Origin: an uncultured Gammaproteobacteria bacterium
GTDB taxonomy: Bacteria > Patescibacteriota > Microgenomatia > UBA8517
Assembly (NCBI GenBank): GCA_964524515.1
Contig: CAZGEA010000001.1
Span: 233,522-297,521, forward strand
Reading direction: 5' to 3'
Length of the DNA: 64,000 nucleotides
In this document: in pieces, positions 20,311 through 63,835 of the stretch
Layout of the letters: each line of letters begins with the position of its first letter
How positions within the stretch are numbered: position 1 is the stretch's first letter
Translations under genes and position numbers: made by a program
The notes under the pieces: model-generated
Seen by the model: the letters and a program-made list of their open reading frames with translations, nothing else
What the model was told of the DNA's origin: nothing
Database searches by the model: none

Positions 20311-20342
20311 TTTAATTACTAATTATATTTTACCATGACTCT

Positions 20343-22096: not shown

Positions 22097-22127
22097 TTAA
22101 GTTTATATTTTACCATTGGAATACAAA

Positions 22128-23834: not shown

Positions 23835-24094
23835 GCAAGTGTAGAAACAGACTTAATATATATAATATTTGTTGGGTTTTTCATTAATTTTGCCAAATCA
23901 GAATTAGTTAGTTCTGATAAAGATGAATATTTAAGTAAATTTGATTCAACTAATTTGTTTTCTTTAGATAATTTCGCCAATTCCTGATAAGAATTTGTTA
24001 GTCCTCCACCCATAGATCCTGATGCAATCGATGTTACAACATTTACTACGATTAAAACACCAAATAATATAATTATTAAAAACTTTTTATTCAT
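23819..24094 (-). CDS. FtsL-like small bitopic division protein (putative)
   Basis: 91 aa with an N-terminal TM helix and a coiled-coil-like tail. It lies between rsmH and ftsI, the conserved ftsL position. Confidence 0.5.
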   Translation of the reverse strand: MNKKFLIIILFGVLIVVNVVTSIASGSMGGGLTNSYQELAKLSKENKLVESNLLKYSSLSELTNSDLAKLMKNPTNIIYIKSVSTLAWIGE

Positions 24095-25396: not shown

Positions 25397-25490
25397 TTTA
25401 TTCACCACTCCTCACCACCATAATCCATTTTGAAGAGTTTTCACAGTTATGTCAAGAGGAATTTATGCACAAAAATGCATATTTCACAAA

Positions 25491-46370: not shown

Positions 46371-47713
46371 ATTTCTAAATTAAGATTATCAATTCTATTA
46401 ACTTCATAAAAAGAATTAAGATAAGCACTAAATAACACCGATCTATAACCATCAATATCATAATAACTTTTATTTGTATCGTTTGTTTTAATTATATACT
46501 CCGGGTTTTTATCACTATTCCATTTGTTAAGTGTATTCATTGATTCGTTTTGTATTTCAAAATACCAAGGATAATTATCCAACCATGGTGTTGGCGGCAA
46601 TAAATTTGCACTAAAATATAAACCAGAATGCAAACCTAATAAATAAACATTATCGCTTTTTAAAATTACTTCATTCAAAGTATTTGATATCTTTAAATCA
46701 CTATTTTCAAAAAATCTAATCGAATTGCTAAATTTAAAACTTGGTTTAATAATAAAATAGCCCATCAAAATAATTAAAATCAAAATTAATATTTGCTTAC
46801 CAGCGGTAAATTTATTTAAAACTATTCTCCATAACAATACTGATATAATTAAATTGCTAGATAAATGAATTGGTGTATATCTAGGAAACATCAAAAATAA
46901 AGACAATAAAGAAAATATAACTAATGACAGACTAATTTTATTTCTTAAATTTCTTTTCAAAACAATCAAAAATATTGGAAAGTTTACAATAAACATAAAA
47001 ATCATTTCCCTCTTTGAATTTAATAAATATAAATACCCAGGAATTTCTCTCCAAAAATATAATGGGTAATAAATTGCCCATCTATAAAAATCACCAACAG
47101 TATTTGAAGTTACAAGATATAAAATAAAAATGGTAACAGGAACAACAAAACCTAAAATATAATTAAGTAAAATTTTTAAGTTTCTTTCATATATTAAAAC
47201 TAATAACAAACTAGGTGGAAAAAAAATTATTGAGGTTTGTTTTGTTAAAAAACATAAGCCTAAAAATAAACCAGCTAAAAAAAATCGACTTCTAATATAA
47301 TAAAATATAAAAATTATTAAATACAAAGATAAAATTGAATCAGGCCAAAAAGAATTTGGTACAAACTCAAACATCAATATTACTAAAAATAATCCATACA
47401 ATATTACCTTTAAGTCTTTTTTTAAATTGATAACTTCAAATACTTTTATAAAAACTAATAAAGTAATTAATTTATAAAAAATAAAAAATAATTTCAAAAA
47501 AAATGGATTAACAAATCCAATCTTAAAAAATAAAATTTGTGGCAAAATAGAAAGTGGCGTATAAACAAACACCAAATCTTTATATAAAACAAGTCCATTA
47601 TTTACAAAATAGGGAAAACTAAGCATCTCAGGCCACAATGTAAATGAAAATGACATCAGAAAAATTATCTGCAAAATGAATAATATAATTAAACCAAAAT
47701 TATACTGTTTCAT
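46349..47713 (-). CDS. Polytopic membrane protein with a C-terminal soluble domain (possible GT-C/polymerase-like)
   Basis: About 10 hydrophobic segments in the first 330 aa, then a hydrophilic tail of about 120 aa. No recognisable motif. Confidence 0.45.
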   Translation of the reverse strand: MKQYNFGLIILFILQIIFLMSFSFTLWPEMLSFPYFVNNGLVLYKDLVFVYTPLSILPQILFFKIGFVNPFFLKLFFIFYKLITLLVFIKVFEVINLKKDLKVILYGLFLVILMFEFVPNSFWPDSILSLYLIIFIFYYIRSRFFLAGLFLGLCFLTKQTSIIFFPPSLLLVLIYERNLKILLNYILGFVVPVTIFILYLVTSNTVGDFYRWAIYYPLYFWREIPGYLYLLNSKREMIFMFIVNFPIFLIVLKRNLRNKISLSLVIFSLLSLFLMFPRYTPIHLSSNLIISVLLWRIVLNKFTAGKQILILILIILMGYFIIKPSFKFSNSIRFFENSDLKISNTLNEVILKSDNVYLLGLHSGLYFSANLLPPTPWLDNYPWYFEIQNESMNTLNKWNSDKNPEYIIKTNDTNKSYYDIDGYRSVLFSAYLNSFYEVNRIDNLNLEIWKRIKN

Positions 47714-48532: not shown

Positions 48533-49399
48533 TTAATAACCCTCGTTAATCTTCATATATCTACGTTTAAATTTTCTCAAAGGTGTCTCAATCAATGACA
48601 CCAAATAAAATAAACTATTCATCTTTTTCCATACATTAGAAACTATTTTCAACTTAGGAATAAAAAAGACTTCTGGGTAAAAAAAATCTTTTGCAAACTC
48701 TATACCCAATTCATGTTTTAATTTTCTAGATCTTTTATAAACTTCAAAATCACGAGATGACACATCTGATCTTTGTAAATGTGTTGCATGCAAATACGGT
48801 GCGTCAATAAAAACTATTTTTTTCTGAGACCGATCTTGAATCATTTTCTCGTTAATATCTGTCCAACCCCAAGTTCCATGTGGTTTAGACGAATGAATCC
48901 CAGGTATTCTCAAATTAAAAGCTCGCAAATTGTAATGACCAGTACGGCCTGCAAGATGATAATGTCCAGCCTTAGCCTCTTGATAATGATACATATCCCC
49001 TACAAGATTTATTGAAGGAACGACTATCGATTCTATTTTATTGTTTTTTAATTTAATTTGTGAAACAACCTTATTAATAGAGTCATTCCACCATATTTCA
49101 TCACCATCAACCACTATTACCCAATTTAATCCATCATTACCTTTAACTTCTTGCAAATCTAAATCTAACATTTGCTGTCTATATCTTTGCTCATCAAAAA
49201 AACCATCCGTATCAAATTTTTTATAAAAAATCTTATTTTTAAACTTATTAATATTTAATATTTCATCAATTACCAATCTTGTTTTATCTTTACTTCCCAT
49301 ATCCCAAATTCTTACTTTATCAACGCTGTTAATAACAGACATTACCGAATACCAAATAAATCTTCCTTCATTTTTTACCAGAATATGTACTGTTATCAT
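48533..49399 (-). CDS. GT-A-fold glycosyltransferase-like protein (GT2-like, divergent)
   Basis: HILVKNEGRFIWYSVMSV...VDKVRIWDMGSKDKT resembles the GT2 N-terminal pattern. A DGDE (DxD-like) motif is present. Confidence 0.45.
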   Translation of the reverse strand: MITVHILVKNEGRFIWYSVMSVINSVDKVRIWDMGSKDKTRLVIDEILNINKFKNKIFYKKFDTDGFFDEQRYRQQMLDLDLQEVKGNDGLNWVIVVDGDEIWWNDSINKVVSQIKLKNNKIESIVVPSINLVGDMYHYQEAKAGHYHLAGRTGHYNLRAFNLRIPGIHSSKPHGTWGWTDINEKMIQDRSQKKIVFIDAPYLHATHLQRSDVSSRDFEVYKRSRKLKHELGIEFAKDFFYPEVFFIPKLKIVSNVWKKMNSLFYLVSLIETPLRKFKRRYMKINEGY

Positions 49400-50670
49400 T
49401 TTATTTCTTTAAATTTAAAATACACCCATAAAAATGGAATAATAAAGTTCGATAAATTTCCAATCAGCACAATTATTGATGCACCAATATAACCATACAT
49501 GGGAATAAAAACATAACCACTAACTAAAGTTATAAACAAATTAATCGAAGTAGTCACAAAAAATAATTTAGGATATGAAAAATAATACAAAACTGCAGAA
49601 TGAACTGGAATTGATATTAGAAAAATTACCTGAGCAAACAACAAAATCATAAATGGTGTGAAACTCTCTTTATAATTTAATCCATAATAATTATTTATTA
49701 AATAATATCCTATCACCCCGCCAAAAATAAAACCAAGCAAAGAAAGAAAAACAACAAATAATTGTAATTTTTTTAAATATTTAATCGCAGTTCTGTTGTC
49801 ATTAAATTTAGTTAATTTTGGAGCCACAACTGCCGCAATCGCTACAACAATTTGTGGAATAACAGATGTTAAATTAACAGCGACAGAATATACTCCTAAA
49901 TCACTTAATGACAAAAATCTACCAGAAAGCAATGTGTCTAATCTTGAACCAACCGCAGATATAACAGTAAATACGATAACCCATTTATTAAACTTTATAA
50001 ACTCGTAAGCAATTTTATTTTCATTCTTAACATTTAAAAAATTAGGCAAAAATGTAAATGAAACTAAAAAACCCAATAGTGGAATTGAAATATAAATAAG
50101 CAAAGCACTTGAAATTGATAAATATCCAAAAATATACAAAAATACAACAACAATCAACCTAACAAAATTCATTGAAACATTTAACGTTCCCCACACCCAA
50201 AACTTTTGAAGTGCCTGCAAACTACTAGTCGAAAATATAAATAAAGTTAAAGTTAAAACTCCAAACAATGCAATACGAAATGGATTAATCAATTCACTTT
50301 TAAAAAACAAAGAATTTGACAAAAAAGGAACAAAAAACCAAATGATAACTATAATGGTTAAAGATGTTACTAATAAAATTTTTAATCCATATTTTAAAAA
50401 CATTAATGCTTTTTCTTTATCATTATCAATATGCCTACCTACAAAATTAACTATACCTGTATCAATTCCCAATTTTGAAACATCGGATATCAAACTAATT
50501 GCTGTAACTGAAATAAAAAATATTCCAAAATTATTTGTACCTAAAAATCTTGCCATTAATATATAAAATATAATTCCCAAAATCCCGTTTAATATAGTTG
50601 AAGTACTGACTAAAAAAGTTTGGTTTAACGTCCTACTTTTTATTATTTCTTTTATCACTCTCAATCTCAT
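49396..50670 (-). CDS. Wzx-like oligosaccharide flippase (MOP/PST family)
   Basis: About 12-14 TM segments over 424 aa. N-terminus TLNQTFLVSTSTILNGILGIIFYILMARFLG is typical of polysaccharide biosynthesis (PST) proteins. Confidence 0.7.
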   Translation of the reverse strand: MRLRVIKEIIKSRTLNQTFLVSTSTILNGILGIIFYILMARFLGTNNFGIFFISVTAISLISDVSKLGIDTGIVNFVGRHIDNDKEKALMFLKYGLKILLVTSLTIIVIIWFFVPFLSNSLFFKSELINPFRIALFGVLTLTLFIFSTSSLQALQKFWVWGTLNVSMNFVRLIVVVFLYIFGYLSISSALLIYISIPLLGFLVSFTFLPNFLNVKNENKIAYEFIKFNKWVIVFTVISAVGSRLDTLLSGRFLSLSDLGVYSVAVNLTSVIPQIVVAIAAVVAPKLTKFNDNRTAIKYLKKLQLFVVFLSLLGFIFGGVIGYYLINNYYGLNYKESFTPFMILLFAQVIFLISIPVHSAVLYYFSYPKLFFVTTSINLFITLVSGYVFIPMYGYIGASIIVLIGNLSNFIIPFLWVYFKFKEIK

Positions 50671-53242
50671 ACATCATAAGTATAACAACAATTAAAACTA
50701 ATATTGATACGAAAGTAATCACCAAACCAATCCTAAAATAATCCTGGCCTAAATATTCAATTGAAATCTGTTTCCAATTTGGCTTTACATAAAATAAATT
50801 TAAAAAAGAAAATAATGGATAACTATTACCAACCAATTGATCATTATTTTTCAAATTCCACAACTTATCATAAGTATCTTTTAATAAAACCCAATTAACA
50901 TTAGAATTATCACTTACAAAATGTCTCCATGGTCTATCAGATTTATAATCTAAATTATAATTATTTGCAGGCAATACTTTTATTTTGTCCTTATCTAAAT
51001 CTGAAATTCTATAAGTTTTAAACTTACTAACATATTTTTTTGAAGTCTCAACAGCCTGATTATAATTCTTTTCTGGAGCTATAAAAATAGTATTCAAAAC
51101 TGAAAAGTCAGAATCATTTTCAATTTCCAATTCTTTAATATTCTCATCAATTTTTATTTTAGTAATAGTCCAATTAAATTGTTTTATATCATTTTTATTT
51201 GTTGATAAGAATTTATCACCAAACTTAATTTTGAGAGGATTACCATTAGAAAATGTTCTAAATCCAATGTAATAATCACCAACTATATATTTATTCGTAA
51301 TGTTAATAATAATTTTTTCACCTTGTTTTGATGAATAAAATATATTCTTGTTATAAACCATATTTCTTAAATCAAAACCACGAATTAAAAGTTCATATTT
51401 CCATTTTAAATAGTTAGCATTATCTCCTATTGCCCAACTATTTTTCACAATTTTATTAGTATCAATAAAATCCTTTTGTAAAAGTGATGAAACTAAATCA
51501 TTATCATCTGCATTATTAAATATTACTTCAACAGTATCAGCTGAAATTTCGTCTGGATCAAATGGTTTAAAAATTCCGTCTTCAAAAAATAATTGAGGAA
51601 ATTGATTTGGTAAATTTATTTGATAAGGTTCGCCAATTACCAAAAATACTTTATCAAAACCTACAATTCTTTTTTCAGGAAAATCAATTTTATAAATATT
51701 AATATTATCAATACTTTTTGAAGCCATTCCAAGAGAAACAAACCTTGCATTCATTTTTACTTGGTCAATCTTATCGTTTATATCCAATGGGATATTTTTG
51801 ACTACACCTGAAAAAATTACATTATTTATTCCCAAAAATCTAAACCAATCTAAAAAATCAAAATTATACATGAAATTAAAGGCATCTCCTCCCTTATTCA
51901 TCAACTTAAATATCGGCAAATTGATCAAATCTCGACCACTAATTCCTTGATTATTTTCAGTTTGATATGTAAATGGGTGAAAATATGGCATCCACAAAGC
52001 TCTTGAAAAATTTTCTTGATTTAAATACTGATAAACATTTTTCAAATTATTACCACGACTTATCATTAGTGTGCCATTTAAAGTATTACTAAAAACTGGA
52101 AAAACTAAAAAACTAAAAAATAAAATAAATGTATAAAAAATATAAGGTTTTATTTTTACAAATCTAATAGAAATTAGATTATAAGTATAAGAAACTAAAA
52201 GAGATGTTGTCATTGCAGTAATCACAAAAAATTTACTTGAATCTCTAAAAATGAAACCAAAAAATATTTTGGAAGTTAAAAAAATATTCACAAACCCAAA
52301 TGGCTCAGTTTCACCTTTCAATAAAAACACTGATGCTAGAAAAATTAATCCCAGCGATATCAATTTTCTTGATGGTTTCAAAAAAACACCCAATATGATA
52401 AACACAAAAACAAATGCAAACAAAAAACTCGGATATGTTATTAACCCATATTGGTTTAACGGCCAATGTGGTTGATAAAACGTTAATCCATTCAATAAAG
52501 AAAAAAATCTACTATTTAATTGAACCGGCAAAAAACTCTCATACATTCCACTAATTGCTGGATATAAAAAATAAGAAAATAACGGAATCAAAATAATAGT
52601 TGAAAATAACGCTTTAAATGCAATCTTTCTCTTCCAAAGAGAATAAAAAAGAAAACTAAAAAACAAGACCAAAAAGGCAATTCTGAAATCAGCGATTGAA
52701 CAAAGGAAAATTACCAAAAGAAACTTGATAAATTTTTGCTTAGTAAAATATATTTGAAAATTAATAAATGTCAAAAATACGAAGGGTGCCAACCCATACG
52801 CTAAATAAACTCCAACTTGCCCACCATCAACCAATAAAATTGAATATGTGTTAATAGTATAAATAAATGTACAAAGTATAGATGATAAAAAATTTAACTT
52901 AAATCTTTTTGCTAATAAATATGATCCAATAATGGAAAAAAACAAACCCGGAAAATAAAAAAGTAATCGAACTATTAAATCATTGTCTAATTTTAAAAAA
53001 AGTCCCAATATCGAATATACAAACATTATTGGCGATATCCAAAATAAGGATTGTGGTCCACCAAAATTATTTGCTCTTGAAACCCAGCTTGATGGTTCAC
53101 CAAAATTATCTATAAAAGCATTTTCATAAAAATACGGGGCATCACCCCAAACAAGTGGTGAATTTAAAAAAAACGACCTATACGCTAAAAATAAAATTAA
53201 AAAAACTGGCAATATAAATATTATTTTTTTAATTTTTAACAT
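50633..53242 (-). CDS. Giant (869 aa) membrane protein: N-terminal polytopic domain (about 14 helices) plus a C-terminal extracytoplasmic domain of about 450 aa; GT-C-like (YfhO/AftD-like architecture, putative)
   Basis: First-loop acidic motif VWGDAPYFYE after TM1, a dense run of hydrophobic helices to about residue 400, then a beta-rich hydrophilic region. Confidence 0.45.
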   Translation of the reverse strand: MLKIKKIIFILPVFLILFLAYRSFFLNSPLVWGDAPYFYENAFIDNFGEPSSWVSRANNFGGPQSLFWISPIMFVYSILGLFLKLDNDLIVRLLFYFPGLFFSIIGSYLLAKRFKLNFLSSILCTFIYTINTYSILLVDGGQVGVYLAYGLAPFVFLTFINFQIYFTKQKFIKFLLVIFLCSIADFRIAFLVLFFSFLFYSLWKRKIAFKALFSTIILIPLFSYFLYPAISGMYESFLPVQLNSRFFSLLNGLTFYQPHWPLNQYGLITYPSFLFAFVFVFIILGVFLKPSRKLISLGLIFLASVFLLKGETEPFGFVNIFLTSKIFFGFIFRDSSKFFVITAMTTSLLVSYTYNLISIRFVKIKPYIFYTFILFFSFLVFPVFSNTLNGTLMISRGNNLKNVYQYLNQENFSRALWMPYFHPFTYQTENNQGISGRDLINLPIFKLMNKGGDAFNFMYNFDFLDWFRFLGINNVIFSGVVKNIPLDINDKIDQVKMNARFVSLGMASKSIDNINIYKIDFPEKRIVGFDKVFLVIGEPYQINLPNQFPQLFFEDGIFKPFDPDEISADTVEVIFNNADDNDLVSSLLQKDFIDTNKIVKNSWAIGDNANYLKWKYELLIRGFDLRNMVYNKNIFYSSKQGEKIIINITNKYIVGDYYIGFRTFSNGNPLKIKFGDKFLSTNKNDIKQFNWTITKIKIDENIKELEIENDSDFSVLNTIFIAPEKNYNQAVETSKKYVSKFKTYRISDLDKDKIKVLPANNYNLDYKSDRPWRHFVSDNSNVNWVLLKDTYDKLWNLKNNDQLVGNSYPLFSFLNLFYVKPNWKQISIEYLGQDYFRIGLVITFVSILVLIVVILMMYEIESDKRNNKK

Positions 53243-53408: not shown

Positions 53409-55283
53409 ATGAAAAACTATATTTACTTTATTTTAGTCACAACTTTATTTTTAATACCTATTCTAGTTAATACAAAAATATTTACTAAAAGAGATAATGA
53501 TTACCAAAATTTTTTTAAGCCCATCTATATTTATTCTAAAAATTCAATAACTAATGACCATATTTTTCCACTTTGGAATAGAATGTATTTTGCAGGTACA
53601 CCACTTTATCCTGATCCACAATCGCAAATTACATATATTTTTAATATTATTTTACTTTTTATTCCAATTGATTTAGGCGTAATAATATTAATCTACATTC
53701 ACATACTCTGCTCTGGAATCCTTGCACACAAATTTTCTAAAAACATTCTAAATTTTGATAATAAAACTTCATTATTCTTTGCAACTGGCTACATGTTTTC
53801 TTACAAAGTTGCTACTTATATTGAAGCTGGACATATCGGTTTAATATATTCCTGGACTTGGATACCACTATATTTATTAGCACTATTTAAATTAATAAAA
53901 AACGATAAACAGAAATACTGGGTACTAATTCTCTGTTTTAGTTCATATGCAATTTTAGTTAATCATATAATTATTTGGTCATATTTATTAATTCTCTCAC
54001 TTACTTTACTATTAGTACCAATTATTCGCCAAAACTTAACGAGAAAAATAGTATTAATATTTGCATTTGCTTTATCAATTTCAATAAATAGCTTTATATT
54101 AATTCCACAATATTTGTGGTCAAAAGAAACATCTAGGAAAACATTAATTACCAACCCAGATCTTTACCCCAAATGGACAAACAAAATAGAAACTATATCA
54201 AACATGATTACACCTTTAAAATTTAGCATCGAAAAAATTCAAAAAAATGATAATGAAAAAATAGTGTCAGCCGGAACTATAATCAGTTTATTTGCAATTC
54301 TTGGTTTGACTAAATTAAACAAAGCAAAAAAAATATTAACAATATTAATAATTACTCTAATATTCTTGATTTATTCTAAATTTCTAATAAACGACTTTAT
54401 TAAATTAACTAGAGTTACAACTAGACTTTCTTTTATACCGACAATACTAACTTTAATTTTATCTTCTGTTTGGATAAACAAAATCAAAAATATTAAAACT
54501 AAACTTATTTTAATATTATTTATAATAATCGAATTCACATCATTCTTTTGGCTATATATAAACAAAAAACCAAACAATACAAAATACATATCAGACAATA
54601 TCCCAAATAAAATAAACTCAAGAGTATATTGCACAACTAGATGCATATCTCAAGAAATGGCCTCAGAACATAAAATATACTTAATTGATGGTTATGGCAC
54701 GCTTCCACAATACAATTTTTACAAAAATGCATGGGGCCTAACTGGGGGCTACTGGAATTACTATACATTATCAATTCCACCATTTGGGCAAATACTTTAT
54801 GAACAAAAGAAACCAGATATCGAACTTTTAGGCGAATACTCAACAAAATATATCTTAAGTCCGTACAAAATAGAAGACAATAATTTAATTAACATCAAAA
54901 CTTTCGAAAATATTTACATTTATGAAAATAAACTTTTTAAAGAAAAAATTACAAGTAATTCACCATTTGCTTATAAAATAAAAGAGAACGCTAACGAAAC
55001 AAATATTAATTTTGAAAAAAAATTCACTGGTCATCTAAAATTCTCAGAAGTTTATTCACCCGGATGGATTGCGATCACAGAATCACAAATTATTAATAGT
55101 GAAGAAACACCAAGTGGAATTCAATCGTTTCACGTAACAATACCAACATCAAAAATAAAACTTACATACATACCGCCAGGTATCAAAACAGGACTACTCA
55201 CATCTATATTCACTTTAATAATTACTTATTTTTTCTCTTATCACCAAGTACTATTTCATAAATCAAAATCAAAAGTCCAATAA
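53409..55283 (+). CDS. Large (624 aa) polytopic membrane protein, GT-C-like (putative); the only plus-strand gene in the glycan locus
   Basis: TM1 then KRDNDY loop, multiple helices to about residue 400, C-terminal soluble domain, and a final TM-like helix. Confidence 0.45.
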   Translation: MKNYIYFILVTTLFLIPILVNTKIFTKRDNDYQNFFKPIYIYSKNSITNDHIFPLWNRMYFAGTPLYPDPQSQITYIFNIILLFIPIDLGVIILIYIHILCSGILAHKFSKNILNFDNKTSLFFATGYMFSYKVATYIEAGHIGLIYSWTWIPLYLLALFKLIKNDKQKYWVLILCFSSYAILVNHIIIWSYLLILSLTLLLVPIIRQNLTRKIVLIFAFALSISINSFILIPQYLWSKETSRKTLITNPDLYPKWTNKIETISNMITPLKFSIEKIQKNDNEKIVSAGTIISLFAILGLTKLNKAKKILTILIITLIFLIYSKFLINDFIKLTRVTTRLSFIPTILTLILSSVWINKIKNIKTKLILILFIIIEFTSFFWLYINKKPNNTKYISDNIPNKINSRVYCTTRCISQEMASEHKIYLIDGYGTLPQYNFYKNAWGLTGGYWNYYTLSIPPFGQILYEQKKPDIELLGEYSTKYILSPYKIEDNNLINIKTFENIYIYENKLFKEKITSNSPFAYKIKENANETNINFEKKFTGHLKFSEVYSPGWIAITESQIINSEETPSGIQSFHVTIPTSKIKLTYIPPGIKTGLLTSIFTLIITYFFSYHQVLFHKSKSKVQ

Positions 55284-55605
55284 AAAATGATTGAAAAGCA
55301 TACACTGCAGTTCTTTCAGCCCAAACATTTATTTCAAAAAAACGCATAATAGCTGTAAATAACCAAAATACTAAAGTTATTACGAACAATGCCCTACTCC
55401 TCGCACCTAATAAAAACACAGACAAAACTATTGAAAAAAAAGTAATAAAATTTACAGTAATAGGAAAAAATGGATGAAAATATCCTGCTGATCTCAAAAC
55501 GAACAATAAAATAAGAATAATATTAAAAATTGTTAGTTGAAACTGATGTAAAACAGTCCAAGTGTTCGCTTTATTTATAATATTCTTTAAAAAAAGAAAT
55601 TTCAT
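55222..55605 (-). CDS. Small 4-TM membrane protein, GtrA-like (putative lipid-linked sugar translocase family)
   Basis: 127 aa with four hydrophobic segments. ATGA-coupled (55602-55605) to the upstream giant membrane-protein gene. Size and topology fit the GtrA family; no specific motif was verified. Confidence 0.4.
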   Translation of the reverse strand: MKFLFLKNIINKANTWTVLHQFQLTIFNIILILLFVLRSAGYFHPFFPITVNFITFFSIVLSVFLLGARSRALFVITLVFWLFTAIMRFFEINVWAERTAVYAFQSFFIGLLILIYEIVLGDKRKNK

Positions 55606-58600
55606 TTTTGTATTACCATTTTTCTCTTTAACAGATAAACACTAGTAAATAGCACTGCAGTAACTAATGATACAACTCCACCAAGAACTATCAAATTTTG
55701 CCTTTTATAATATAACCTAAATTTATAGTTACTTTTCGCACTATCAACATACCAAACATTAGCATATAAATTTCCAGTAAAGTGTGTTTCATTAATTTCT
55801 TTATCATCTCCCACAAAAACCATTTCCCAAAGTGGAGAGTAATTTTCAGAAAATACAATCAAATGTGGAGCTTTTACATTGTAGACTTCACCTTCATATT
55901 CGACCGGTGATGTTTTTGTAAATTTAATATCTGGAAGCAATAATTCCGGCTTATTTATTACTTGCTCAAGATATAAATCATTTGAAAAAACTCTATAAAA
56001 ACGAAGGTTCTTATATAACACTTTTGTTCCAAGTGCATCTTTTGTTAGTGGTGCCAACAATTCAATTTTAACATTTGAAACAGTTTGAACAGGCTCATAA
56101 TAAAAGCTAAAAGCTCCCCATTCAGGATAGTTTGGCATTCTCTCAACTTGAGCCTTAACTAAATTTTTTGTATTTCCTTGATTTATCAATATTGCAGCGT
56201 TGTTACCATAAATTTGTTTATAGTCAACAGAAACAAAATAATTAGACATATAGTCAAAACTGCCTATACTGTATTTTGCAGACACATCCTTTTTTGATTT
56301 ATTCATTATTGATAAATAATCACCATCCAAATCCCTCAAATTATTAAATTGACCTTCACCATTTTTAATAAAATTATTATCAACTAAATTATCATTTGTT
56401 ATATTTAATACAATTTCATGATCACCTTTTCCAAAGATTAATGGGGACAATCGAACATAAGTATCATTTAAACTTAAAATTTTAATTTGCGATTGCTTAC
56501 CATCAACAATTAAACTAATTCCTCCATTTAATGGAATACCAAACTTTTCTAAATTATATCTTTCAATAATTGGTGAGTATTCGCCACTCGTATTAACAGT
56601 AAATTTATAAATAACTTTACTCAAATCACGCACTGAAAGTCTATCTACTAAATTTGATTGATTATTTCTAAAATTAGTAAAATCCTCATTCTGTGAATTC
56701 TTTGCAACAATTATAGATTTTGTTTGTATACCTTTTACTTGATTGATAACACTATCATTTTGATTTGCCAAAACAAAATTCTCACTATTAAGGGGAATTG
56801 TTTTAATTGCTTTATCGTAAGGATATGCAAAACTAATTAACTGACTCACTTGCAATTTCAAAGTATCCATATTACCTTCAGGGTACTCATATATATTCCA
56901 TGATCCAAAACTTTTTGATTTCTTTTTAACAATTTGCTCAGGTAATACTGGAGAGAGACTTTCTTGATCACCTTTTTCTAATATCTGTGAAACATTTAGT
57001 TTTTTCAAAACATTATCTGCCCTATACAATTCACCTCTCTTAACACTTGAATAAAACATTTTTACAAGCTGTGAAATTGGCGATTCTGGTGCAGTAATTG
57101 GTAAAAACAAAGTTTCACGATCAACAACTAATGCCAAAACTGATTCAATTGCATTGTAACCCCACGAAAATCTTTCAATCTCATTATCTGGATAATTTAT
57201 TATTCTTCCATTTTTATTCTGGTCAATATACTTTGCTGCATCAAATAAATAACTAGGAAAATGAATATAAAAATTATCATGCATCGAAGCTCTAAATATT
57301 TTCCCCTGAACAAGTGGGTAATTATAAACTAAATTTCCAAAAATTATTATGAACCCAAAAAAAGATAATAAATACAAATATATTTTGGGATATTTATTCT
57401 CTTTAAAATTACTATTAAATGAATAAAACAAAAGTGAAATTAAACCTGCAACAGAAATAATCAAAAGTGGTGTAAAAATATACCAAGGACTTCTAAACAA
57501 ACTAAAAAATGGCAGATGCTGACTCAAAAAATGAAATATATACCCCGTAGGTAAATGTGTTCCGACACCCAAAAATACACCAATTAACATCATCAATCCA
57601 AATCCAATATATAAGTAATTTTTTTCCTTTTTCCAAAAAATTAATGCTATAAAACTAAGACTTGGAAGTAAAAAACTAAATATCAAAAAAGGTAATTTAA
57701 AAAAATAATTAACTGCATATGGGATATATAAGGGCTGATTAGTTGTCGAATCAAGTGAATACCAATCCCAAGCCCCTTGTTGCCTCCAAATATTTAATAT
57801 ACTAGTATTTTCCGATAAACTATCGATCCAATTTGTATACCCAATCTTATCAATACTTCCTGATGGTGCAATTGTTCCAAATATAAAACTAAATGTTGGA
57901 AAAATCCAAATTGCATTAATTAATAAAATTGGCACAGCTAAAGTTAAAAAATTTAAAAATGAAAATTTCAAAAAATCAAAAGTCCTTACACTTAGAACTA
58001 CACCAAACATATATATAGCAATAACTGCAAAAAAACACATAAAATATGCAGGATTAATTCCAGAACCAGATAGAATAATTCCAACAATCATTGAAAAAAA
58101 CAAAGCTTTTGGTCGACTTATACTTTTTTTATTCATATATATAATTAACACCAGTCCAAAAGGTATTGCTGAAATTAACGACAAATTAGAAACTTTTACA
58201 TTCTCCCAAGTGTTAAATACATAAACATTAAAAACATATATCGAAACAAAGATTAATTGTGATATTTTATATTTTTCAAATATCACTTTTGATAGTGAAT
58301 ACGAAGCAAAAACGATTAAACTAAACCAAAACAGTAAACTAAATAATTCAACTAATTGAAGTGAAAAGCCAAGTTTATATGGTAAATATTGAACAAAATG
58401 AAAAAACAAACCTGCAGTTGAAGATGAAAAATCACCACCAGCATTTCCAATTGGATTCCATGTAAAAAATCTCCTCAAAAACCATATTTCAGGATTCAAT
58501 GGAAAATTCGTATCTGATCCGTTTATTAATGCGTCTCCTCGCCCTTTAAACCAAACAATTGGAGTCAGAGAAAATAGAATGAGAATAATGTTTAACCAAT

Positions 58601-58634
58601 TACTTGAAACAAAACGATTAATCCTTTGCTTCAT
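55602..58634 (-). CDS. Giant (1010 aa) membrane protein: N-terminal polytopic GT-C-like domain (about 450 aa) plus a C-terminal extracytoplasmic region of about 550 aa and a terminal TM anchor
   Basis: TM1 then the GRGDALINGSDTNFPLNPE loop and many helices. The C-terminal hydrophilic beta-rich region ends with a hydrophobic helix VVSLVTAVLFTSVYLL. Confidence 0.45.
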   Translation of the reverse strand: MKQRINRFVSSNWLNIILILFSLTPIVWFKGRGDALINGSDTNFPLNPEIWFLRRFFTWNPIGNAGGDFSSSTAGLFFHFVQYLPYKLGFSLQLVELFSLLFWFSLIVFASYSLSKVIFEKYKISQLIFVSIYVFNVYVFNTWENVKVSNLSLISAIPFGLVLIIYMNKKSISRPKALFFSMIVGIILSGSGINPAYFMCFFAVIAIYMFGVVLSVRTFDFLKFSFLNFLTLAVPILLINAIWIFPTFSFIFGTIAPSGSIDKIGYTNWIDSLSENTSILNIWRQQGAWDWYSLDSTTNQPLYIPYAVNYFFKLPFLIFSFLLPSLSFIALIFWKKEKNYLYIGFGLMMLIGVFLGVGTHLPTGYIFHFLSQHLPFFSLFRSPWYIFTPLLIISVAGLISLLFYSFNSNFKENKYPKIYLYLLSFFGFIIIFGNLVYNYPLVQGKIFRASMHDNFYIHFPSYLFDAAKYIDQNKNGRIINYPDNEIERFSWGYNAIESVLALVVDRETLFLPITAPESPISQLVKMFYSSVKRGELYRADNVLKKLNVSQILEKGDQESLSPVLPEQIVKKKSKSFGSWNIYEYPEGNMDTLKLQVSQLISFAYPYDKAIKTIPLNSENFVLANQNDSVINQVKGIQTKSIIVAKNSQNEDFTNFRNNQSNLVDRLSVRDLSKVIYKFTVNTSGEYSPIIERYNLEKFGIPLNGGISLIVDGKQSQIKILSLNDTYVRLSPLIFGKGDHEIVLNITNDNLVDNNFIKNGEGQFNNLRDLDGDYLSIMNKSKKDVSAKYSIGSFDYMSNYFVSVDYKQIYGNNAAILINQGNTKNLVKAQVERMPNYPEWGAFSFYYEPVQTVSNVKIELLAPLTKDALGTKVLYKNLRFYRVFSNDLYLEQVINKPELLLPDIKFTKTSPVEYEGEVYNVKAPHLIVFSENYSPLWEMVFVGDDKEINETHFTGNLYANVWYVDSAKSNYKFRLYYKRQNLIVLGGVVSLVTAVLFTSVYLLKRKMVIQK

Positions 58635-60684
58635 ATATATTTAACTCATTTATAACCCATGAAGCAAAATTATGAGTTCCAATTTGTTCAATTCTTAAAT
58701 ATCTATATTTTTCAGGTTTCATGTATATATTTATAATGCCACTTGTATCAGGTTGTATTGCTTTTGAATAATAAACTTCTTTCCAATTAATTTTATCATT
58801 CGATAAACTAATTCTATAGCCAACTTTATCCTGATTGGAATTATTATAGGAGTCAATTTGAATATGAGCAATCGCCATTTTATCTTTAAAATCAATATCA
58901 AGATATTGATAATTTGAATATGGAAGCTGTGAATCCCAAAATGTCTCTCTTTTTGCGTCACTTAAAAACTTTATGTTTACCTTATTTAATGTTGAAGTCA
59001 CGATATAATTCTTTATCTTCCTCTCATTTGATAAATACCCCTTCAATCTACCCCTTATTTCACTAGTTGTATCAAATACTTCATTAAGCTGACTATCATA
59101 TCGAAAAGAATAAATAAAATTCATATCAATATTTTTATTCTTCACCATTTTTGCCAAATCATCAAAAACTCTATAGTATCCAAAACTTTTACCATCAATC
59201 TCCTTATAATCTTGGCTTTCAATATCCCATAAATAGTAATTATCAAAAAATTTACCGGAAAGATTTAATCTTGATTGATTATAAACCATAAATGTATGTC
59301 CAAAGCCTGACTGAAAAGGTAATATTTTATCCTTTTCAGCCAAACCATAATATGATTTATCACTTTCACTATACAAAATAAAATCATTTTGGTTATCAGG
59401 AATAATCAAAGAAGCTTTTCTCAAAATTTCAATTCGCTTTTTAGCATCACTATTTAACATATTAAAATAATTCTGAGTTAAAAATAAATTAAATACAAAA
59501 AATAATATTAAAAAAATATTCAATACTTTTCCCTTACTAAAAATTATTGGCAATATCATCGCCATCCCAATATTCAAAAAATATAAGTTACGTGAATCAA
59601 AATATACACTAAATCCATAAACCCCTGGTGATAACGAATATATAAAACTATTTAAAACAATAAAAACCAATCCGATCATTAGTATTAACTTATTATTCTT
59701 ATCGCTTGTCTCACAATATCTCGTTTTAAAAATTAAATAAAATATAAAATTTATAACAATAACAAGAGATACTGATATAACATTTTCTGAATATCTATCA
59801 AAACTTGTAGTTCCAATTCCTCCAGTTATTTTATTAGGAATTAAAGAGGTAATTTTGTTTGAAAAATAAATTAAACCATTTGAACTTAATATTAATTGAG
59901 GTACCACCTTAAACGGCGAAGTAAGCATATTAAGTATTAATGTTTGCGTACTTTGGGTTTGAGTTACAATTTGCTTATCATTTGTAGCTTGGTGAGGTAA
60001 AAATAAAGCAAAAACTCTAAATATACTGTAAATTAAAAATGATATAAAAATAAATTTAAAAACATATATTTTATATTGCTTCTTATTTGAGAAAAAAAGA
60101 TAAAATAAATAAACAATAAACATTCCAATTGATATTTCTTTAAAAAGAAGAGAAGCAAAAAGAAAAAAAACAGAAACTAATAAATCCTTTTTATTTTCAG
60201 AAGAAAATGATTTTATAAAAAAAATGAATGAGAAAATTGCAAAAATTACTGCTCCATGTGTGTTTAAATCTGTAACAACCCAAGTTGTAGCTTGAATACC
60301 CGATGCAGAAATACCAAAAATAAATGCAACTATCAATGAATATTTTTCACTATTAGATAGCTCACGCGCCAATAAATAAACTAAGCAAGTAATAATTATA
60401 TGAAAGATAATACTCACAAGTGCCCAAGGGAAATAGTTAACTTTAAATATTCCAAATAAAAAATCAAAAACCAAATCACGTAGTGGAGTGTAATGTCCAA
60501 TCTTTGGGTAAAAAAAATTAGCAATTCTATTTATAAAAGGTAGCGACTGATTCAAATAACCAGATCCAAAGGCCTGCCATTCATCTTGTTGATAGAACCC
60601 CTTAAAAAGGGGCAGATAACATACAACAATTACAAATAAAATTAATAAAATAAACTTATTTTTTTTAAAAAATTGCCACCTCAT
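58618..60684 (-). CDS. Giant (688 aa) GT-C-like membrane protein with a C-terminal discoidin-like (F5/8 type C) carbohydrate-binding domain
   Basis: TM1 then the FYQQDEWQAFG (DE) loop and about 11 helices. The C-terminus YQYLDIDFKDKMAIAHIQID...YRISLSNDKINWKEVYY...YRYLRIEQIGTHNFASWVINELNIYEA matches the discoidin pattern (W..V, S.DG.nW, R...~ E..vy). Confidence 0.5.
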   Translation of the reverse strand: MRWQFFKKNKFILLILFVIVVCYLPLFKGFYQQDEWQAFGSGYLNQSLPFINRIANFFYPKIGHYTPLRDLVFDFLFGIFKVNYFPWALVSIIFHIIITCLVYLLARELSNSEKYSLIVAFIFGISASGIQATTWVVTDLNTHGAVIFAIFSFIFFIKSFSSENKKDLLVSVFFLFASLLFKEISIGMFIVYLFYLFFSNKKQYKIYVFKFIFISFLIYSIFRVFALFLPHQATNDKQIVTQTQSTQTLILNMLTSPFKVVPQLILSSNGLIYFSNKITSLIPNKITGGIGTTSFDRYSENVISVSLVIVINFIFYLIFKTRYCETSDKNNKLILMIGLVFIVLNSFIYSLSPGVYGFSVYFDSRNLYFLNIGMAMILPIIFSKGKVLNIFLILFFVFNLFLTQNYFNMLNSDAKKRIEILRKASLIIPDNQNDFILYSESDKSYYGLAEKDKILPFQSGFGHTFMVYNQSRLNLSGKFFDNYYLWDIESQDYKEIDGKSFGYYRVFDDLAKMVKNKNIDMNFIYSFRYDSQLNEVFDTTSEIRGRLKGYLSNERKIKNYIVTSTLNKVNIKFLSDAKRETFWDSQLPYSNYQYLDIDFKDKMAIAHIQIDSYNNSNQDKVGYRISLSNDKINWKEVYYSKAIQPDTSGIINIYMKPEKYRYLRIEQIGTHNFASWVINELNIYEAKD

Positions 60685-61673
60685 TTAATAAAATTCGCCA
60701 AAAATTTTCTCCCCCCTTGAGATGTCAAAAATACATACATTATTACATTCGTTGTTATCCACACTACAATCGGTTCATACAATCCCAGTATTGTTCTGTG
60801 TTTAATCGATCTGAATATTCCATAAAACAAAGGTCCAATAATTGTCTCAGAATACAGTACCCACAATGCCAATTTAAAAATCGATTTTTTGTCTGATGTA
60901 TCTATCCATGTCCAATATCTTTTTTCATTTTTCACAAAAAAAGTTTTCTTAAGATTTCTAACTCTTTTATCAATCATAGTTTTAATGTCTGGAACAGTCA
61001 GATGATGCAAACCAGCGGATTTAACATACGCATATTTATCAAAACCTTTATTTAAAAGTATTACTAAATTATCAAGTTCATAAAACCTTTTTCTTTTTGA
61101 AATCTCATCAATCGACAGTATTTGTTTAGTTCTAAAAACACACAAACCCATTGATAAAATATTATTTTTATTAAATATCATCAAATCGTATCCATTTCTT
61201 TTTTCCGTTATTAATGACTCTACACTTGGAGTTAAATAAACAAACAAAGGGTCTCTTTGTATAGGATCAAGAGTTAAATATTTATTAAGCAATGGGTCAC
61301 TTTTATAAGAAACAAAACCTGTAGTAGAAGCTATGAGTGTTTTATCATTTTCAAGAGGTTCCACCATCTTCTTAATCCAGTATGAAGTAGGTAAATCTAT
61401 ATCTGCATCAAGGTATGTATAATATTTTCCACTTGCTCTCTTTAAAGAAATCATCTTTGCTGTTAGATAATCATTTTCTTTGTTCTTAATTATCTTTACA
61501 AATTTATATTTCCTGGCAATTTCAATTGTCCCATCAATACATCCATTATCCACAACAAAAACTTCGATTTTGCCACTATATTTTTGCTTTTTAATTGAGT
61601 CAAGACAATTCGCAATATTTTTTTCTTCGTTATATACAGGAATAGAAATAGTAATAGAAGGCATTCTTTTCAT
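60681..61673 (-). CDS. GT2 polyprenyl-phosphate sugar synthase-like (GtrB/DPM1-like: GT-A domain plus C-terminal TM helices). The start is trimmed to the MKRM methionine, which removes a 68-nt overlap.
   Basis: ITISIPVYNEEKNIANCLDSI...VFVVDNGCIDGT, and a C-terminal LALWVLYSETIIGPLFYGIF...IVVWITTNVIMYVFL. Confidence 0.7.
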   Translation of the reverse strand: MKRMPSITISIPVYNEEKNIANCLDSIKKQKYSGKIEVFVVDNGCIDGTIEIARKYKFVKIIKNKENDYLTAKMISLKRASGKYYTYLDADIDLPTSYWIKKMVEPLENDKTLIASTTGFVSYKSDPLLNKYLTLDPIQRDPLFVYLTPSVESLITEKRNGYDLMIFNKNNILSMGLCVFRTKQILSIDEISKRKRFYELDNLVILLNKGFDKYAYVKSAGLHHLTVPDIKTMIDKRVRNLKKTFFVKNEKRYWTWIDTSDKKSIFKLALWVLYSETIIGPLFYGIFRSIKHRTILGLYEPIVVWITTNVIMYVFLTSQGGRKFLANFIK

Positions 61674-61674
61674 A

Positions 61675-62859
61675 TTATTCAAAATTAAACATAGTTGGAT
61701 AAATCTTTTTATAATAAAACTTATTATTAAGTTCAACTGCATTTAATTGATACTTTTTATAATTTGACATTATTTTTTTAATTGCAGCCACTAATTGAAT
61801 CGAACTATAGTAATCAATTACGATTCCCGCTTTGTGTTTCTTGATCACATTTGAAAACTCAATAATATTTGTTGTAATCACTGGTAAACCAAAATTAATA
61901 TATCTTTTTGGTTTTCCCGGATCAGTATAAAAAGAAACAGTTCCTGGCTCTGGCATATATGGTGCAATTCCAATATGACAATTTTTCAAAATTTTTTCAA
62001 ATTGACTTTCCTCAACATATCCATAAAACTTAACAGACAGTGGGCTATTCTTAGCACGCCTCTTAAAATATAACTCTTCAGGTCCAGAGCCAATTATTTC
62101 AAAACTAATATTTGGAAAGTTTTTATGAATTACTTCCTGATTATCAAAAATTATATCCAAACCTTGGCTTTTTTTAAGTACACCAATAAATCCAATTTTA
62201 ATTTTTTTATCGTGAACTTTCATGTTTGAATTAAAATTCGCTTCACCAGTTGCAATAGGAACAACTTTATAAATTCCCAACCTAGGAATTATATTTTCTC
62301 TTTTTCGAGGTAAAATCATTCTCTTGTGCAAGAAAAATGTATTATCAGAAAAAAGTGTAGCAAATTTATCAAATTGCCAATAAACTCTTCTCATCAAAAC
62401 AACAATTTTTTTCTCGTGATTAAATGGATAATAATCCCAAACCCAAAATAAAGTATTTTTTACAAGTCCGACTTTCTTAAGAAGAATTCCGATTGTCGCT
62501 GGAAAGGCATTAACAGTAAAATAGATATCAATTTTTCCGTATCTAATATAAACACTGGCAAAGGCCCAAAAAATCTGAACGAAAGTTAAAATTGATTTCA
62601 GCGGAAGTAAAAAAAATAAAAGTTTTTGAGAAATACTAAATTCATAAAAAGGAGTCTCTTTTTCCAAAATTCCATCTTTATATATTGCTAATTTATTTAT
62701 TTTCTTTTTGTTTCCTATCTGATAAAAACCAGCCAGAAACAAAAAGACATACTTATTATTCTCACGTAAATAATCCAATATTTTTCCGGAATTATCATAC
62801 GGAAAATAATTTACATAAAATACTTTTTTTACGGAAAAATCACTCTTATCTTTTTTCAT
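61675..62859 (-). CDS. Glycosyltransferase-like protein (GT-B-like C-terminal half, divergent)
   Basis: The C-terminal region IGIAPYMPEPGTVSFYTDPGKPKRYINFGLPVITTNIIEF resembles a GT-B donor-binding half. The N-terminus has no clear match. Confidence 0.45.
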   Translation of the reverse strand: MKKDKSDFSVKKVFYVNYFPYDNSGKILDYLRENNKYVFLFLAGFYQIGNKKKINKLAIYKDGILEKETPFYEFSISQKLLFFLLPLKSILTFVQIFWAFASVYIRYGKIDIYFTVNAFPATIGILLKKVGLVKNTLFWVWDYYPFNHEKKIVVLMRRVYWQFDKFATLFSDNTFFLHKRMILPRKRENIIPRLGIYKVVPIATGEANFNSNMKVHDKKIKIGFIGVLKKSQGLDIIFDNQEVIHKNFPNISFEIIGSGPEELYFKRRAKNSPLSVKFYGYVEESQFEKILKNCHIGIAPYMPEPGTVSFYTDPGKPKRYINFGLPVITTNIIEFSNVIKKHKAGIVIDYYSSIQLVAAIKKIMSNYKKYQLNAVELNNKFYYKKIYPTMFNFE

Positions 62860-63835
62860 TAATTAATTGAGGTAAATATAATTTTACTTGTTCCTCGATC
62901 CAGTTGTAAGTCTCTAATAATCCATCCTCAAGCGAAACTTGAGGTGTCCACCCCAAAACCCGATTTACCATTGTATTGTCAGAATTTCTACCCCTAACAC
63001 CTTGTGGCCCGTCTATGTGTTTTTTCTTAATTTTAATTCCAGCAATACTAGAAACAATATCTGCCAAATCATTTATGCTTACCATTCTGTCCTGCCCAAT
63101 ATTAAGAGGTTTATTGTAATCTGATTCCATAAACAGGTCTATTCCTTTTACACAATCATCAATGTAACAAAAAGATCTTGTTTGATTACCATCTCCCCAA
63201 ATTTCAATCTCTGGATTATTTGTCAATTTTGCAATTGCAACTTTCCTACAAAAGGCTGCAGGAACTTTTTCCCGACCGCCTCTCCATGTTCCCATTGGAC
63301 CAAATATATTGTGAAATCTTGCAACTCTCATCTCGATTCCATAATCATTCTGATAATATGTACACATCAATTCATGAATCAATTTTTCCCATCCATATGA
63401 ATCTTGAGGGGAAGCGGGAAAGGCGTCATCTTCTTTCAAAGGTGAAGGGTTCTCTGTCAATTGTTTAGATTCAGGATACACACATGCAGTTGAAGAATAA
63501 AAATACTTTTTAACACCATTTTCTCTACTGGCTTCAAGGGTATTTGTACTAATCATCATATTGTTATGAAAAATTAAAGAAAAATTATTTGATATAAAAC
63601 CCATTCCACCCATATCTGCTGCCAATGAATACACTTGATCAACTCCTTCAGTTGCCATCAAAGCATTTTCAAAATTACGCAAATCAAGAAGTAAAAATTC
63701 ATTTGAGTGATCTGCTGAAAATTCTGGTTTTTTAATATCAACTCCTCTAACCCAATAACCTTTATCTCTAAGAAATTTTACAAGATGGCTACCAATAAAA
63801 CCTCCTGCCCCAGTAACCAATACTTTCTTTTTCAT
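62846..63835 (-). CDS. NAD-dependent nucleotide-sugar epimerase/dehydratase (extended SDR)
   Basis: VLVTGAGGFIGSHLVKFL (Rossmann TGxxGxxG), the catalytic triad region STACVY ... YGWEK (YxxxK), and RFHNIFGP. Confidence 0.85.
   Translation of the reverse strand: MKKKVLVTGAGGFIGSHLVKFLRDKGYWVRGVDIKKPEFSADHSNEFLLLDLRNFENALMATEGVDQVYSLAADMGGMGFISNNFSLIFHNNMMISTNTLEASRENGVKKYFYSSTACVYPESKQLTENPSPLKEDDAFPASPQDSYGWEKLIHELMCTYYQNDYGIEMRVARFHNIFGPMGTWRGGREKVPAAFCRKVAIAKLTNNPEIEIWGDGNQTRSFCYIDDCVKGIDLFMESDYNKPLNIGQDRMVSINDLADIVSSIAGIKIKKKHIDGPQGVRGRNSDNTMVNRVLGWTPQVSLEDGLLETYNWIEEQVKLYLPQLINEKR

Follow-up and report, generated by a model that had tools for sequence, protein, structure and literature searches.

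A conserved operon of two predicted GT-C glycosyltransferases and a small membrane protein at the upstream end of a Microgenomates cell-envelope glycan locus

Introduction

Multi-component transmembrane glycosylation systems have been described several times over: the GtrA/GtrB/GtrC systems of phage P22 and of the Shigella phages SfX and SfV, teichoic-acid glycosylation by CsbB, GtcA and YfhO, the Pgf system of S. mutans, the mycobacterial AftD/PpgS system and the GT136 system of C. youngae. Here we analyze a stretch of 64,000 nucleotides (nt) of contig CAZGEA010000001.1 (the whole of which we call the window) from a Microgenomates bacterium of the Candidate Phyla Radiation (CPR, or Patescibacteria), in which an operon encodes a glycosyltransferase of family GT2, two large predicted glycosyltransferases of the GT-C class and a protein of 127 aa with four transmembrane (TM) helices. 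This region, the upstream end of a cell-envelope glycan locus, works like the systems named above but is not a member of the Gtr system, and the unit conserved among its relatives is the two GT-C genes together with the small gene, not a GT2 with a flippase and a GT-C.

Genes for a membrane GT2, a small 4-TM protein and a polytopic GT-C stand side by side in the phage Gtr systems, as they do here, and a lipid-linked donor is used outside the membrane, which is probable here as well. Mycobacterial AftD consists of a GT-C domain, a large outer domain and a return TM helix, and its residue D41, in the loop equivalent to the first external loop considered below, is essential (bioRxiv 10.1101/2019.12.22.885152). 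The pgf operon of S. mutans (PgfS, PgfM1, PgfE, PgfM2) encodes a GT2, an epimerase and a pair of large membrane proteins, and its glycosylation targets are surface adhesins (PMC5856776); our region likewise brings a GT2 and an epimerase together with several large proteins of the membrane. In C. youngae the locus of the GT136 enzyme also encodes a small 4-TM protein, as does our operon, and the finished polysaccharide is modified after polymerization (PMC11127046). Among GT-C enzymes, AftD, Emb and GT136 are known to carry carbohydrate-binding modules, and their outer domains bind the acceptor polysaccharide (PMC11127046; bioRxiv 10.1101/2019.12.22.885152).

CPR bacteria have tiny genomes and cell envelopes that are almost unstudied biochemically. 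Our search of the literature on this locus in the CPR, and on DUF3367 outside mycobacteria, found no account of the operon or of the small-protein family.

The operon and its conservation

A sequence-only reading of this DNA had assigned four genes to a Gtr-type three-component module: a GT2 of GtrB/DPM1/ArnC architecture, a GtrA-like small protein and a GT-C component held to be duplicated and giant. All four open reading frames (ORFs) were found where it had placed them, and one of the large proteins carries the discoidin domain that it had noticed:

60681 to 61673, minus strand: GT2 of 330 aa, predicted to be membrane-anchored (Pfam Glycos_transf_2 and AlphaFold2 model)
58618 to 60684, minus strand: predicted PMT_2/ArnT-like GT-C of 688 aa with a C-terminal discoidin domain (Pfam PMT_2)
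58654 to 58971, minus strand: F5/8 type C (discoidin) domain of the 688-aa protein, aa 572-677 (Pfam)
55602 to 58634, minus strand: predicted AftD/YfhO-like GT-C of 1010 aa (Pfam matches of homologues and hhalign)
55222 to 55605, minus strand: small 4-TM membrane protein of 127 aa, ATGA-coupled to the AftD-like gene

The genes are tightly packed, with ATGA stop/start overlaps at the junction of the GT2 and 688-aa genes and at that of the 1010-aa and 127-aa genes, and an overlap of 17 nt between the two large genes.

How far is this arrangement conserved? All informative homologues came from Woesebacteria, Daviesbacteria or unclassified Patescibacteria. In a first set of loci from Woesebacteria and Daviesbacteria (L001-L013) the order of PMT2-like gene (540-696 aa), AftD-like gene (~1000 aa) and small gene (118-163 aa) is invariant wherever there is room for it. 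Scanning metagenomes with the AftD-like profile gave 80 loci, and among the 55 distinct loci with room, over which we counted, the small gene lies directly downstream of the AftD-like gene in 53 (49 found automatically and four by inspecting ORFs called from upstream starts); in 52 the immediate upstream neighbor of the AftD-like gene is the PMT2-like gene. Most junctions overlap. The start of the small gene falls between -31 and +26 nt from the stop of the AftD-like gene (52 junctions measured), with -4 the commonest distance, and at the junctions of PMT2-like and AftD-like genes -17 or -4 nt is commonest.

The GT2 does not share this constancy. A homologue of it lies within ~8 kb in 19 of the 37 long loci, and because this GT2 is thus near only about half of the loci, whereas the small gene and the PMT2-like gene almost always flank the AftD-like gene, the conserved unit is GT-C, GT-C and small protein. 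A second kind of GT2, resembling mycobacterial PpgS, lies near the trio in 14 of the 37 long loci; of the 37, both GT2 types occur in eight, the GT2 studied here alone in 11, the PpgS-like GT2 alone in six and neither in 12, a distribution that gives no sign that the two are functionally equivalent.

Further downstream, a YfhO-like gene, a homologue of an 869-aa protein and the Wzx-like partner of the latter recur in most long loci. In the window these are three adjoining genes of the conserved neighborhood that the sequence-only module had left out:

53409 to 55283, plus strand: predicted YfhO-like GT-C of 624 aa, convergent to the operon
50633 to 53242, minus strand: predicted paralogue of the 1010-aa GT-C, 869 aa (hhalign)
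49396 to 50670, minus strand: MOP/Wzx-family flippase of 424 aa, overlapping the end of the 869-aa gene

Two genes upstream of the GT2 had no homologues in loci L001-L013 and are thus not conserved neighbors:

61675 to 62859, minus strand: GT4 glycosyltransferase immediately upstream of the GT2 (Pfam Glycos_transf_1)
62846 to 63835, minus strand: NAD-dependent sugar epimerase/reductase (Pfam Epimerase)

The nearest NCBIfam model of the epimerase is GDP-L-fucose synthase, at 135 bits, which is below the cut-off of that model.

A conserved, translationally coupled operon of two GT-Cs and a small protein points to an envelope glycan or glycoconjugate that is important to these organisms, and the three genes form a defined set open to reconstitution in a different host.

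The large membrane proteins

That the large proteins are GT-C enzymes, as the sequence-only reading proposed, is supported by sequence comparison. A polytopic N-terminal domain whose first external loop has a conserved acidic residue, the pattern expected of a GT-C, is found in the families of the 688-, 1010-, 869- and 624-aa proteins alike, and the conserved Asp past TM1 in all four parallels the essential D41 of mycobacterial AftD. The 688-aa protein has ~9-11 hydrophobic segments by hydropathy and matches PMT_2 over aa 67-218 with 27.2 bits, slightly over the cut-off of 26.1; just past TM1 of its family (72 sequences) D34 is invariant and E35 at least 80% conserved. Its discoidin domain is clear (F5_F8_type_C, E 3.5e-11; F5_F8_type_C_2, E 2.3e-8), although homologues come in two sizes, ~540 aa and ~690 aa, and the shorter form is without it. 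By analogy with the carbohydrate-binding modules of other GT-Cs, the discoidin domain of the 688-aa protein may bind the acceptor.

In the 1010-aa protein ~10-11 N-terminal TM helices (aa 9-438) are followed by a non-hydrophobic domain of ~540 aa and a single C-terminal TM helix (978-1003), the same layout as in AftD. The link to AftD runs through homologues: 13 of 27, at 43-53% identity, match PF11847 (GT-C_AftD), the mycobacterial N-terminal GT-C model, and among five of them checked singly the top score was 32.3 bits against a cut-off of 26 bits, over aa ~40-495. The first external loop holds D41 and D68, which do not vary in an alignment of 27 sequences and reach at least 80% conservation among 53, and the family is well populated in Patescibacteria, with at least 321 clusters. 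The protein differs from AftD in length (~1000 aa versus ~1400) and in ending with one C-terminal TM helix, without counterparts of TM13-16. It also belongs to a CPR bacterium and not to an actinobacterium, and as Pfam scans of the window turned up neither a UbiA-type phosphoribosyltransferase nor a DprE-like gene, nothing points to an arabinofuranose donor.

Are the two large operon proteins duplicates of each other? Comparison of the two families by hhalign gave a probability of relationship of 2-5%, so the word "duplicated" in the sequence-only reading is wrong for this pair, the members of which belong to different GT-C lineages. The true paralogue of the 1010-aa protein is instead the 869-aa protein encoded nearby: small alignments of the two families gave a probability of 99.1% (E 7e-19, 702 columns) and larger ones 99.5% (E 2e-23). 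It is solely by this alignment to the 1010-aa family that the 869-aa protein is tied to the GT-Cs; past TM1 of its family D34 is invariant (19 sequences). The Wzx-like gene that overlaps the 869-aa gene adjoins its homologue in most related loci that show one, so that the pair is kept. The product of that gene matches Polysacc_synt (E 8e-20) and Polysacc_synt_3 (E 1.4e-17) in Pfam and an MOP flippase model in NCBIfam, and the pair might be a GT-C with its donor flippase, or the flippase might be the Wzx of a repeat-unit pathway.

The 624-aa protein is probably a YfhO-like relative of both the 1010- and 869-aa proteins. Its family aligns with the 869-aa family at 95-97% over the TM domain and has a conserved RDNDY motif past TM1, and the C-terminal ~90 aa of the 1010-aa protein align with the YfhO-like C-terminus (hhalign 89-91%). 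A YfhO-type C-terminal module in both the 624- and 1010-aa proteins recalls the CsbB/GtcA/YfhO and Pgf systems, but the matches are weak: the 624-aa protein scores 22.7 bits with the C-terminus of Pfam YfhO, under the cut-off of 28.5, and matches the C-terminus of NCBIfam PgfM2 at E 1.6e-6, also below cut-off, and 2 of its 12 homologues match YfhO. No protein of the GtcA/GtrA family is present.

The small membrane protein

The 127-aa ORF is a genuine and conserved gene with 15 close homologues, and its family comprises 62 representative clusters in 1.84 billion proteins, with lengths of 52-334 aa, seen here only in Microgenomates/Patescibacteria records. An N-terminal helix precedes four hydrophobic helices, at 21-40, 51-66, 71-89 and 93-125 in the AlphaFold2 model. 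Across 51 members Lys and Arg are frequent in the N-terminus, loop 2 and the C-terminus and rare in loops 1 and 3, which gives a 4-TM topology with both termini inside. The best-conserved residues lie in the two outward loops, as Y42-F43-x-P45 in loop 1 and W95-A96-E97-R98..Y102 in loop 3. As a side observation on the gene itself, its 3' end and that of the convergent 624-aa gene share 62 nt.

Could this protein be the flippase of a Gtr-type system, in which the GT2 would be a synthase of the GtrB/DPM1/ArnC type and the large proteins enlarged Gtr-specific GT-Cs? The likeness to GtrA, a protein of ~120 aa with four TM helices and both ends cytoplasmic, is real in size and topology, and the large proteins are supported as GT-Cs. 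Size and topology are, though, all that agrees. Pfam found nothing on the ORF at E<=0.1, and PF04138, the GtrA family, was not among its matches at E<=10; the NCBIfam scan was likewise without a GtrA signal; PF04138 was also absent among the matches listed (the 25 most frequent of 62 families) for 51 family members at E<=10. Comparison by hhalign with an alignment of genuine GtrA proteins (P22, epsilon34 and others) gave 0.1% probability, and a GtrA hidden Markov model, run on every ORF of the window and of over 90 related loci, had no match. We rejected GtrA as the identity of this protein on these scans, and a lack of GtrA similarity in this very ORF is an outcome that the sequence-only reading had itself named as refuting its proposal. 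Position speaks against a GtrA as well: a GtrA gene is expected next to and upstream of the GtrB-type synthase gene, the P22 order being gtrA-gtrB-gtrC, whereas here the order is GT2, GT-C, GT-C, small protein, and the small gene follows the AftD-like GT-C and is coupled to it rather than to the GT2. A flippase of unrelated ancestry is conceivable, because the small 4-TM flippases of known systems come from unrelated families (GtrA; SMR-like, PMC11127046), but the conserved residues of this family are in outward loops and do not line the membrane core. Nor does the family match anything in the PDB or BFVD libraries: its profile yielded no AftD, SMR or other meaningful match among PDB sequences (E<=10), no SMR or EmrE appeared among its listed Pfam and PDB matches, which sets it apart from the small protein of C. 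youngae, and the model found nothing below E=1 among viral structures (BFVD), a search made uninformative by a mean confidence (pLDDT) of 67. Nor did comparison of the family with the four GT-C families, Wzx and DUF2304 find any relationship. It is an undescribed family without annotation, and the lesson for annotation is that a small 4-TM protein beside a GT2 and a GT-C needs a family test before it is labeled GtrA.

A different origin is suggested by mycobacterial AftD, the chain of which re-enters the membrane through a single helix, TM12, and then continues with TM13-16 (bioRxiv 10.1101/2019.12.22.885152). The 1010-aa protein stops just past one such helix and the overlapping next gene encodes four, so might the 127-aa protein be a separately encoded counterpart of TM13-16? 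The idea agrees with the layout but is very unlikely: no AftD chain is among the PDB matches of the small-family profile at E<=10, none of the 62 representatives, of which the longest has 334 aa, is a fusion with a GT-C, and no similarity to any part of the four GT-C families was found.

Two distant members of the small family, P0254 and P0257 (E ~4e-4 to 8e-4), keep the WAE-T-Y motif and have an extra TM helix and, at the C-terminus, a LytR_C domain, which is otherwise linked with enzymes for the attachment of cell-wall glycopolymers. Among the mycobacteria, the GtrA-family protein Rv3789 offers a parallel for a small 4-TM protein associated with a GT-C.

The GT2

The 330-aa start of the GT2, at 61673, lies 1 nt past the stop of the upstream GT4 gene and is the start used in the public gene calls and in 25 of 25 aligned homologues. 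A start at 61742, which would give 353 aa and add an N-terminal hydrophobic segment, was rejected because it defines only the longest ORF and both homologues and public calls use the shorter form. Pfam Glycos_transf_2 matches aa 32-145 of that longest ORF at E 1.3e-24.

The AlphaFold2 model of the GT2 is confident (pLDDT 91, predicted template modeling score, pTM, 0.87) and consists of a GT-A domain, an interface helix at 230-245 and a C-terminal helical hairpin at 262-317, whose helices (262-292 and 296-317) have pLDDT values of 85-95. They are moderately hydrophobic (segments 264-290 and 293-321 at a Kyte-Doolittle threshold of 1.0), and on the strength of these C-terminal helices the protein is predicted to be membrane-anchored. 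This part of the sequence-only reading therefore stands, and the soluble processive GT2 that it had named as the outcome contrary to its proposal does not apply. The other part, a specifically GtrB/DPM1/ArnC-like architecture, does not stand, since the matches cover only the generic N-terminal 100-145 aa. Profile matches in the PDB are confined to residues 4-145, with chondroitin synthase best, and chondroitin synthase, GalT1 and TarS rank over DPMS, ArnC (E 8e-7) and GtrB (E 1.3e-5); hhalign aligned only 101 N-terminal columns with P22 GtrB.

D91, in a DAD motif, is invariant in the 25-sequence alignment, so that the DxD expected of such an enzyme is present. A Gln two residues after the DxD (DxD-x-Q) is a hallmark of GtrB/DPM1/ArnC-type synthases. 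P22 GtrB has it (DVDLQD), and so does the PpgS-like protein of a related locus, L003 (DADGQF), whereas the GT2 studied here reads DADIDL and its family DADIDL, DADMDL or GADMRF. The C-terminal TM region proved unrelated to the GtrB C-terminus, to DUF2304 and to GtrA, and we found no support for a fused form of PpgS and DUF2304, the C-terminal TM part resembling neither the GtrB C-terminus nor DUF2304. What still speaks for a Gtr-type enzyme is the combination of a GT-A domain with a C-terminal TM hairpin, as in GtrB, and an invariant basic cluster in the interface helix (K236-R237-x-R239-N240 in the 25-sequence alignment), of which K236, R237 and R239 could bind a lipid phosphate. Set against the lack of the Gln, the absence of this GT2 from about half of the trio loci and the failure of the GtrA test, these features leave a Gtr-type three-component system unlikely.

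If not GtrB, what does the GT2 most resemble? The top Foldseek match of its model is PcManGT of Pyrobaculum (6yv7, E 2.9e-11), and structurally the model is closer to hyaluronan synthase (class I), PcManGT and BcsA than to GtrB, ArnC or DPMS, and the match to PcManGT and the hyaluronan synthases includes the membrane-proximal helices. Its nearest NCBIfam models are the XrtG-associated glycosyltransferase, PgaC and NodC rather than ArnC. The GT2 might therefore be a membrane-embedded enzyme with a minimal cellulose-synthase-like fold, lengthening a lipid-linked glycan on the cytoplasmic side in the manner of PcManGT, with the donors of the GT-Cs coming from an unlinked PpgS/DPM1-like enzyme. 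The separate PpgS-like synthases of the relatives agree with this, and the eight loci with both types suggest that the two are not redundant. On the other side, the GT2 differs from PcManGT and the hyaluronan synthases in having only two TM helices and none at the N-terminus, and thus no channel of its own, and in having KRxRN in place of QxxRW, at 11-18% identity; the helix equivalent to QxxRW is basic and without the sugar-stacking Trp, which suits a phosphate acceptor. No PpgS/DPM1-like gene was seen in the window either. We regard this assignment as tentative, yet the most credible of the alternatives considered. PcManGT itself is reportedly a dolichyl-phosphate-dependent mannosyltransferase, so a lipid-phosphate-linked acceptor for the GT2 stays plausible.

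A second GT2 of 277 aa, at 44524-45357 (minus strand), has two strongly hydrophobic C-terminal TM segments (aa 218-267) and only generic N-terminal GT2 matches in the PDB and NCBIfam, and appears to be another membrane-anchored GT2.

Proposed mechanism

The explanation that we favor, at a probability of roughly 55%, is that the trio carries out glycosylation at the outer face of the membrane. Both GT-Cs would act there with polyprenyl-monophosphate sugar donors, as suggested by their GT-C hallmarks, by the PpgS-like synthases beside the trio in relatives and by the discoidin domain and large outer domains. The acceptor would probably be the polysaccharide made by the adjoining Wzx/Wzy pathway, and the discoidin domain could hold this glycan in place. 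The 127-aa protein would be a dedicated partner of the AftD-like enzyme, a role suggested by its tight coupling to and near-obligate co-occurrence with that gene and by its conserved outward loops. Because these conserved residues appear to face outward, we favor a membrane subunit that acts at the interface of the outer leaflet, not a path for transport across the membrane core, and think it less likely that the protein flips or presents the donor. The neighboring MOP-family gene is another candidate for the flippase. Such a pairing of a Wzx-like protein with a dolichyl-P-mannose-using enzyme has a precedent in the archaeal AglR and AglS. The GT2 would work at the cytoplasmic membrane face on polyprenyl-phosphate or a lipid-linked acceptor, where it may make one of the donors or extend a lipid-linked intermediate, and would not be an obligatory part of the module. 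The data establish the gene anatomy, the family relationships, the topology from charge bias and the synteny; the type of donor, the acceptor, a physical complex and the roles of the GT2 and the small protein are inferred from them.

The lipid-linked donor is the part of the three-component Gtr logic that stays plausible, because relatives carry a PpgS-like synthase and DUF2304 beside the same genes; the part that does not hold is the composition of the module. In several of the related loci (at L003 10392-11419 and also in L004, L005, L024 and L047) the small gene is directly followed by a PpgS-like GT2 of 228 aa and a DUF2304 membrane protein, which together are a split form of polyprenyl-P-sugar synthase and recall the mycobacterial set of PpgS (Rv3631), Rv3632 and Rv3779. 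The PpgS-like GT2 matches NF058614 with 177 bits over its full length. The C. youngae system differs in this respect, since its donor synthase is a PRPP-dependent polyprenyl-phosphoribose synthase, of which none is present here.

Several observations weigh against the favored explanation. No PpgS/DPM1-like synthase, and no PpgS/DUF2304 pair, was found in the 64-kb window. The 1010-aa protein itself has no Pfam or NCBIfam match, and PF11847 is unmatched even at E<=10; the profile of its family retrieves no solved GT-C and no AftD chain from the PDB sequences, and that of the 624-aa family likewise no solved GT-C. The model of the small protein, at its low confidence, says nothing on a binding interface. 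Finally, PMT_2-family enzymes can glycosylate proteins instead of glycans.

The last point leads to a further alternative, that the trio is a protein O-glycosylation machine of the PMT or S. mutans Pgf type serving S-layer, pilin or other surface proteins. The PMT_2 match of the 688-aa protein, the gene content shared with the pgf operon and the NCBIfam matches of the GT2 to PgfS (E 1.4e-4) and of the 624-aa protein to PgfM2 are all in its favor. Every one of the Pgf matches is far under the family cut-off, however, the locus sits inside a Wzx/Wzy polysaccharide cluster, and the discoidin domain and the large AftD-like outer domain would suggest a glycan acceptor; we consider protein glycosylation decidedly unlikely, less so only than the split AftD.

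Two bolder and related readings deserve mention. The trio could be an obligate hetero-oligomeric glycosylation machine specific to the Microgenomates, or the 4-TM protein could found a third family of polyprenyl-P-sugar flippases or donor-presenting proteins, unrelated to GtrA and to SMR/ArnEF. That one of these holds is possible but doubtful; if either did, the AftD-like enzyme would depend on the small protein for its function. What is potentially novel here is the role of the small protein and the formation of a complex by the three products, and an unannotated small family that almost always accompanies one GT-C lineage offers a handle on how GT-Cs obtain or position lipid-linked donors.

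The surrounding glycan locus and the rest of the window

The glycan locus runs from ~30 kb to the end of the window, the genes studied here forming its upstream end. It encodes an initiating phosphoglycosyl transferase, a nucleotidyl transferase, many GT4 and GT2 enzymes, a Wzy_C protein, a further PMT_2 GT-C, an acyltransferase, a methyltransferase and a Wzx/MOP flippase. Four GT-C genes lie within ~11 kb, two of them, unrelated to each other, in the operon and two more nearby, a further difference from the Gtr systems, and a fifth lies elsewhere in the window. The fifth (488 aa, PMT_2/PMT) adjoins the Wzy_C protein, which is O-antigen ligase/polymerase-like, at 36067-38968 (minus strand), within the glycan locus. 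Two polytopic proteins without a Pfam match lie amid the glycosyltransferase genes, one of 438 aa with ~7 TM helices (43211-44527, minus strand) and one of 454 aa with ~9 (46349-47713, minus strand), and could be candidate polymerase- or ligase-like proteins. Directly adjoining the initiating phosphoglycosyl transferase is a DUF4012 protein of 688 aa with one TM helix (27955-30021, minus strand).

The G+C content of the window is ~28%. GC skew is negative in all 2-kb bins (-0.11 to -0.32), and nearly all genes are on the minus strand. A complete dcw cell-division/cell-wall cluster lies at 10333-25408, with FtsZ, FtsA, MurG, FtsW, MraY, a Mur ligase, Ddl, a penicillin-binding protein transpeptidase, MraW and MraZ, and we conclude from it that the organism makes peptidoglycan. 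Near the start of the window, at 1580-3463 on the plus strand, is a gene for a protein of 627 aa with a Peptidase_C39_2 domain.

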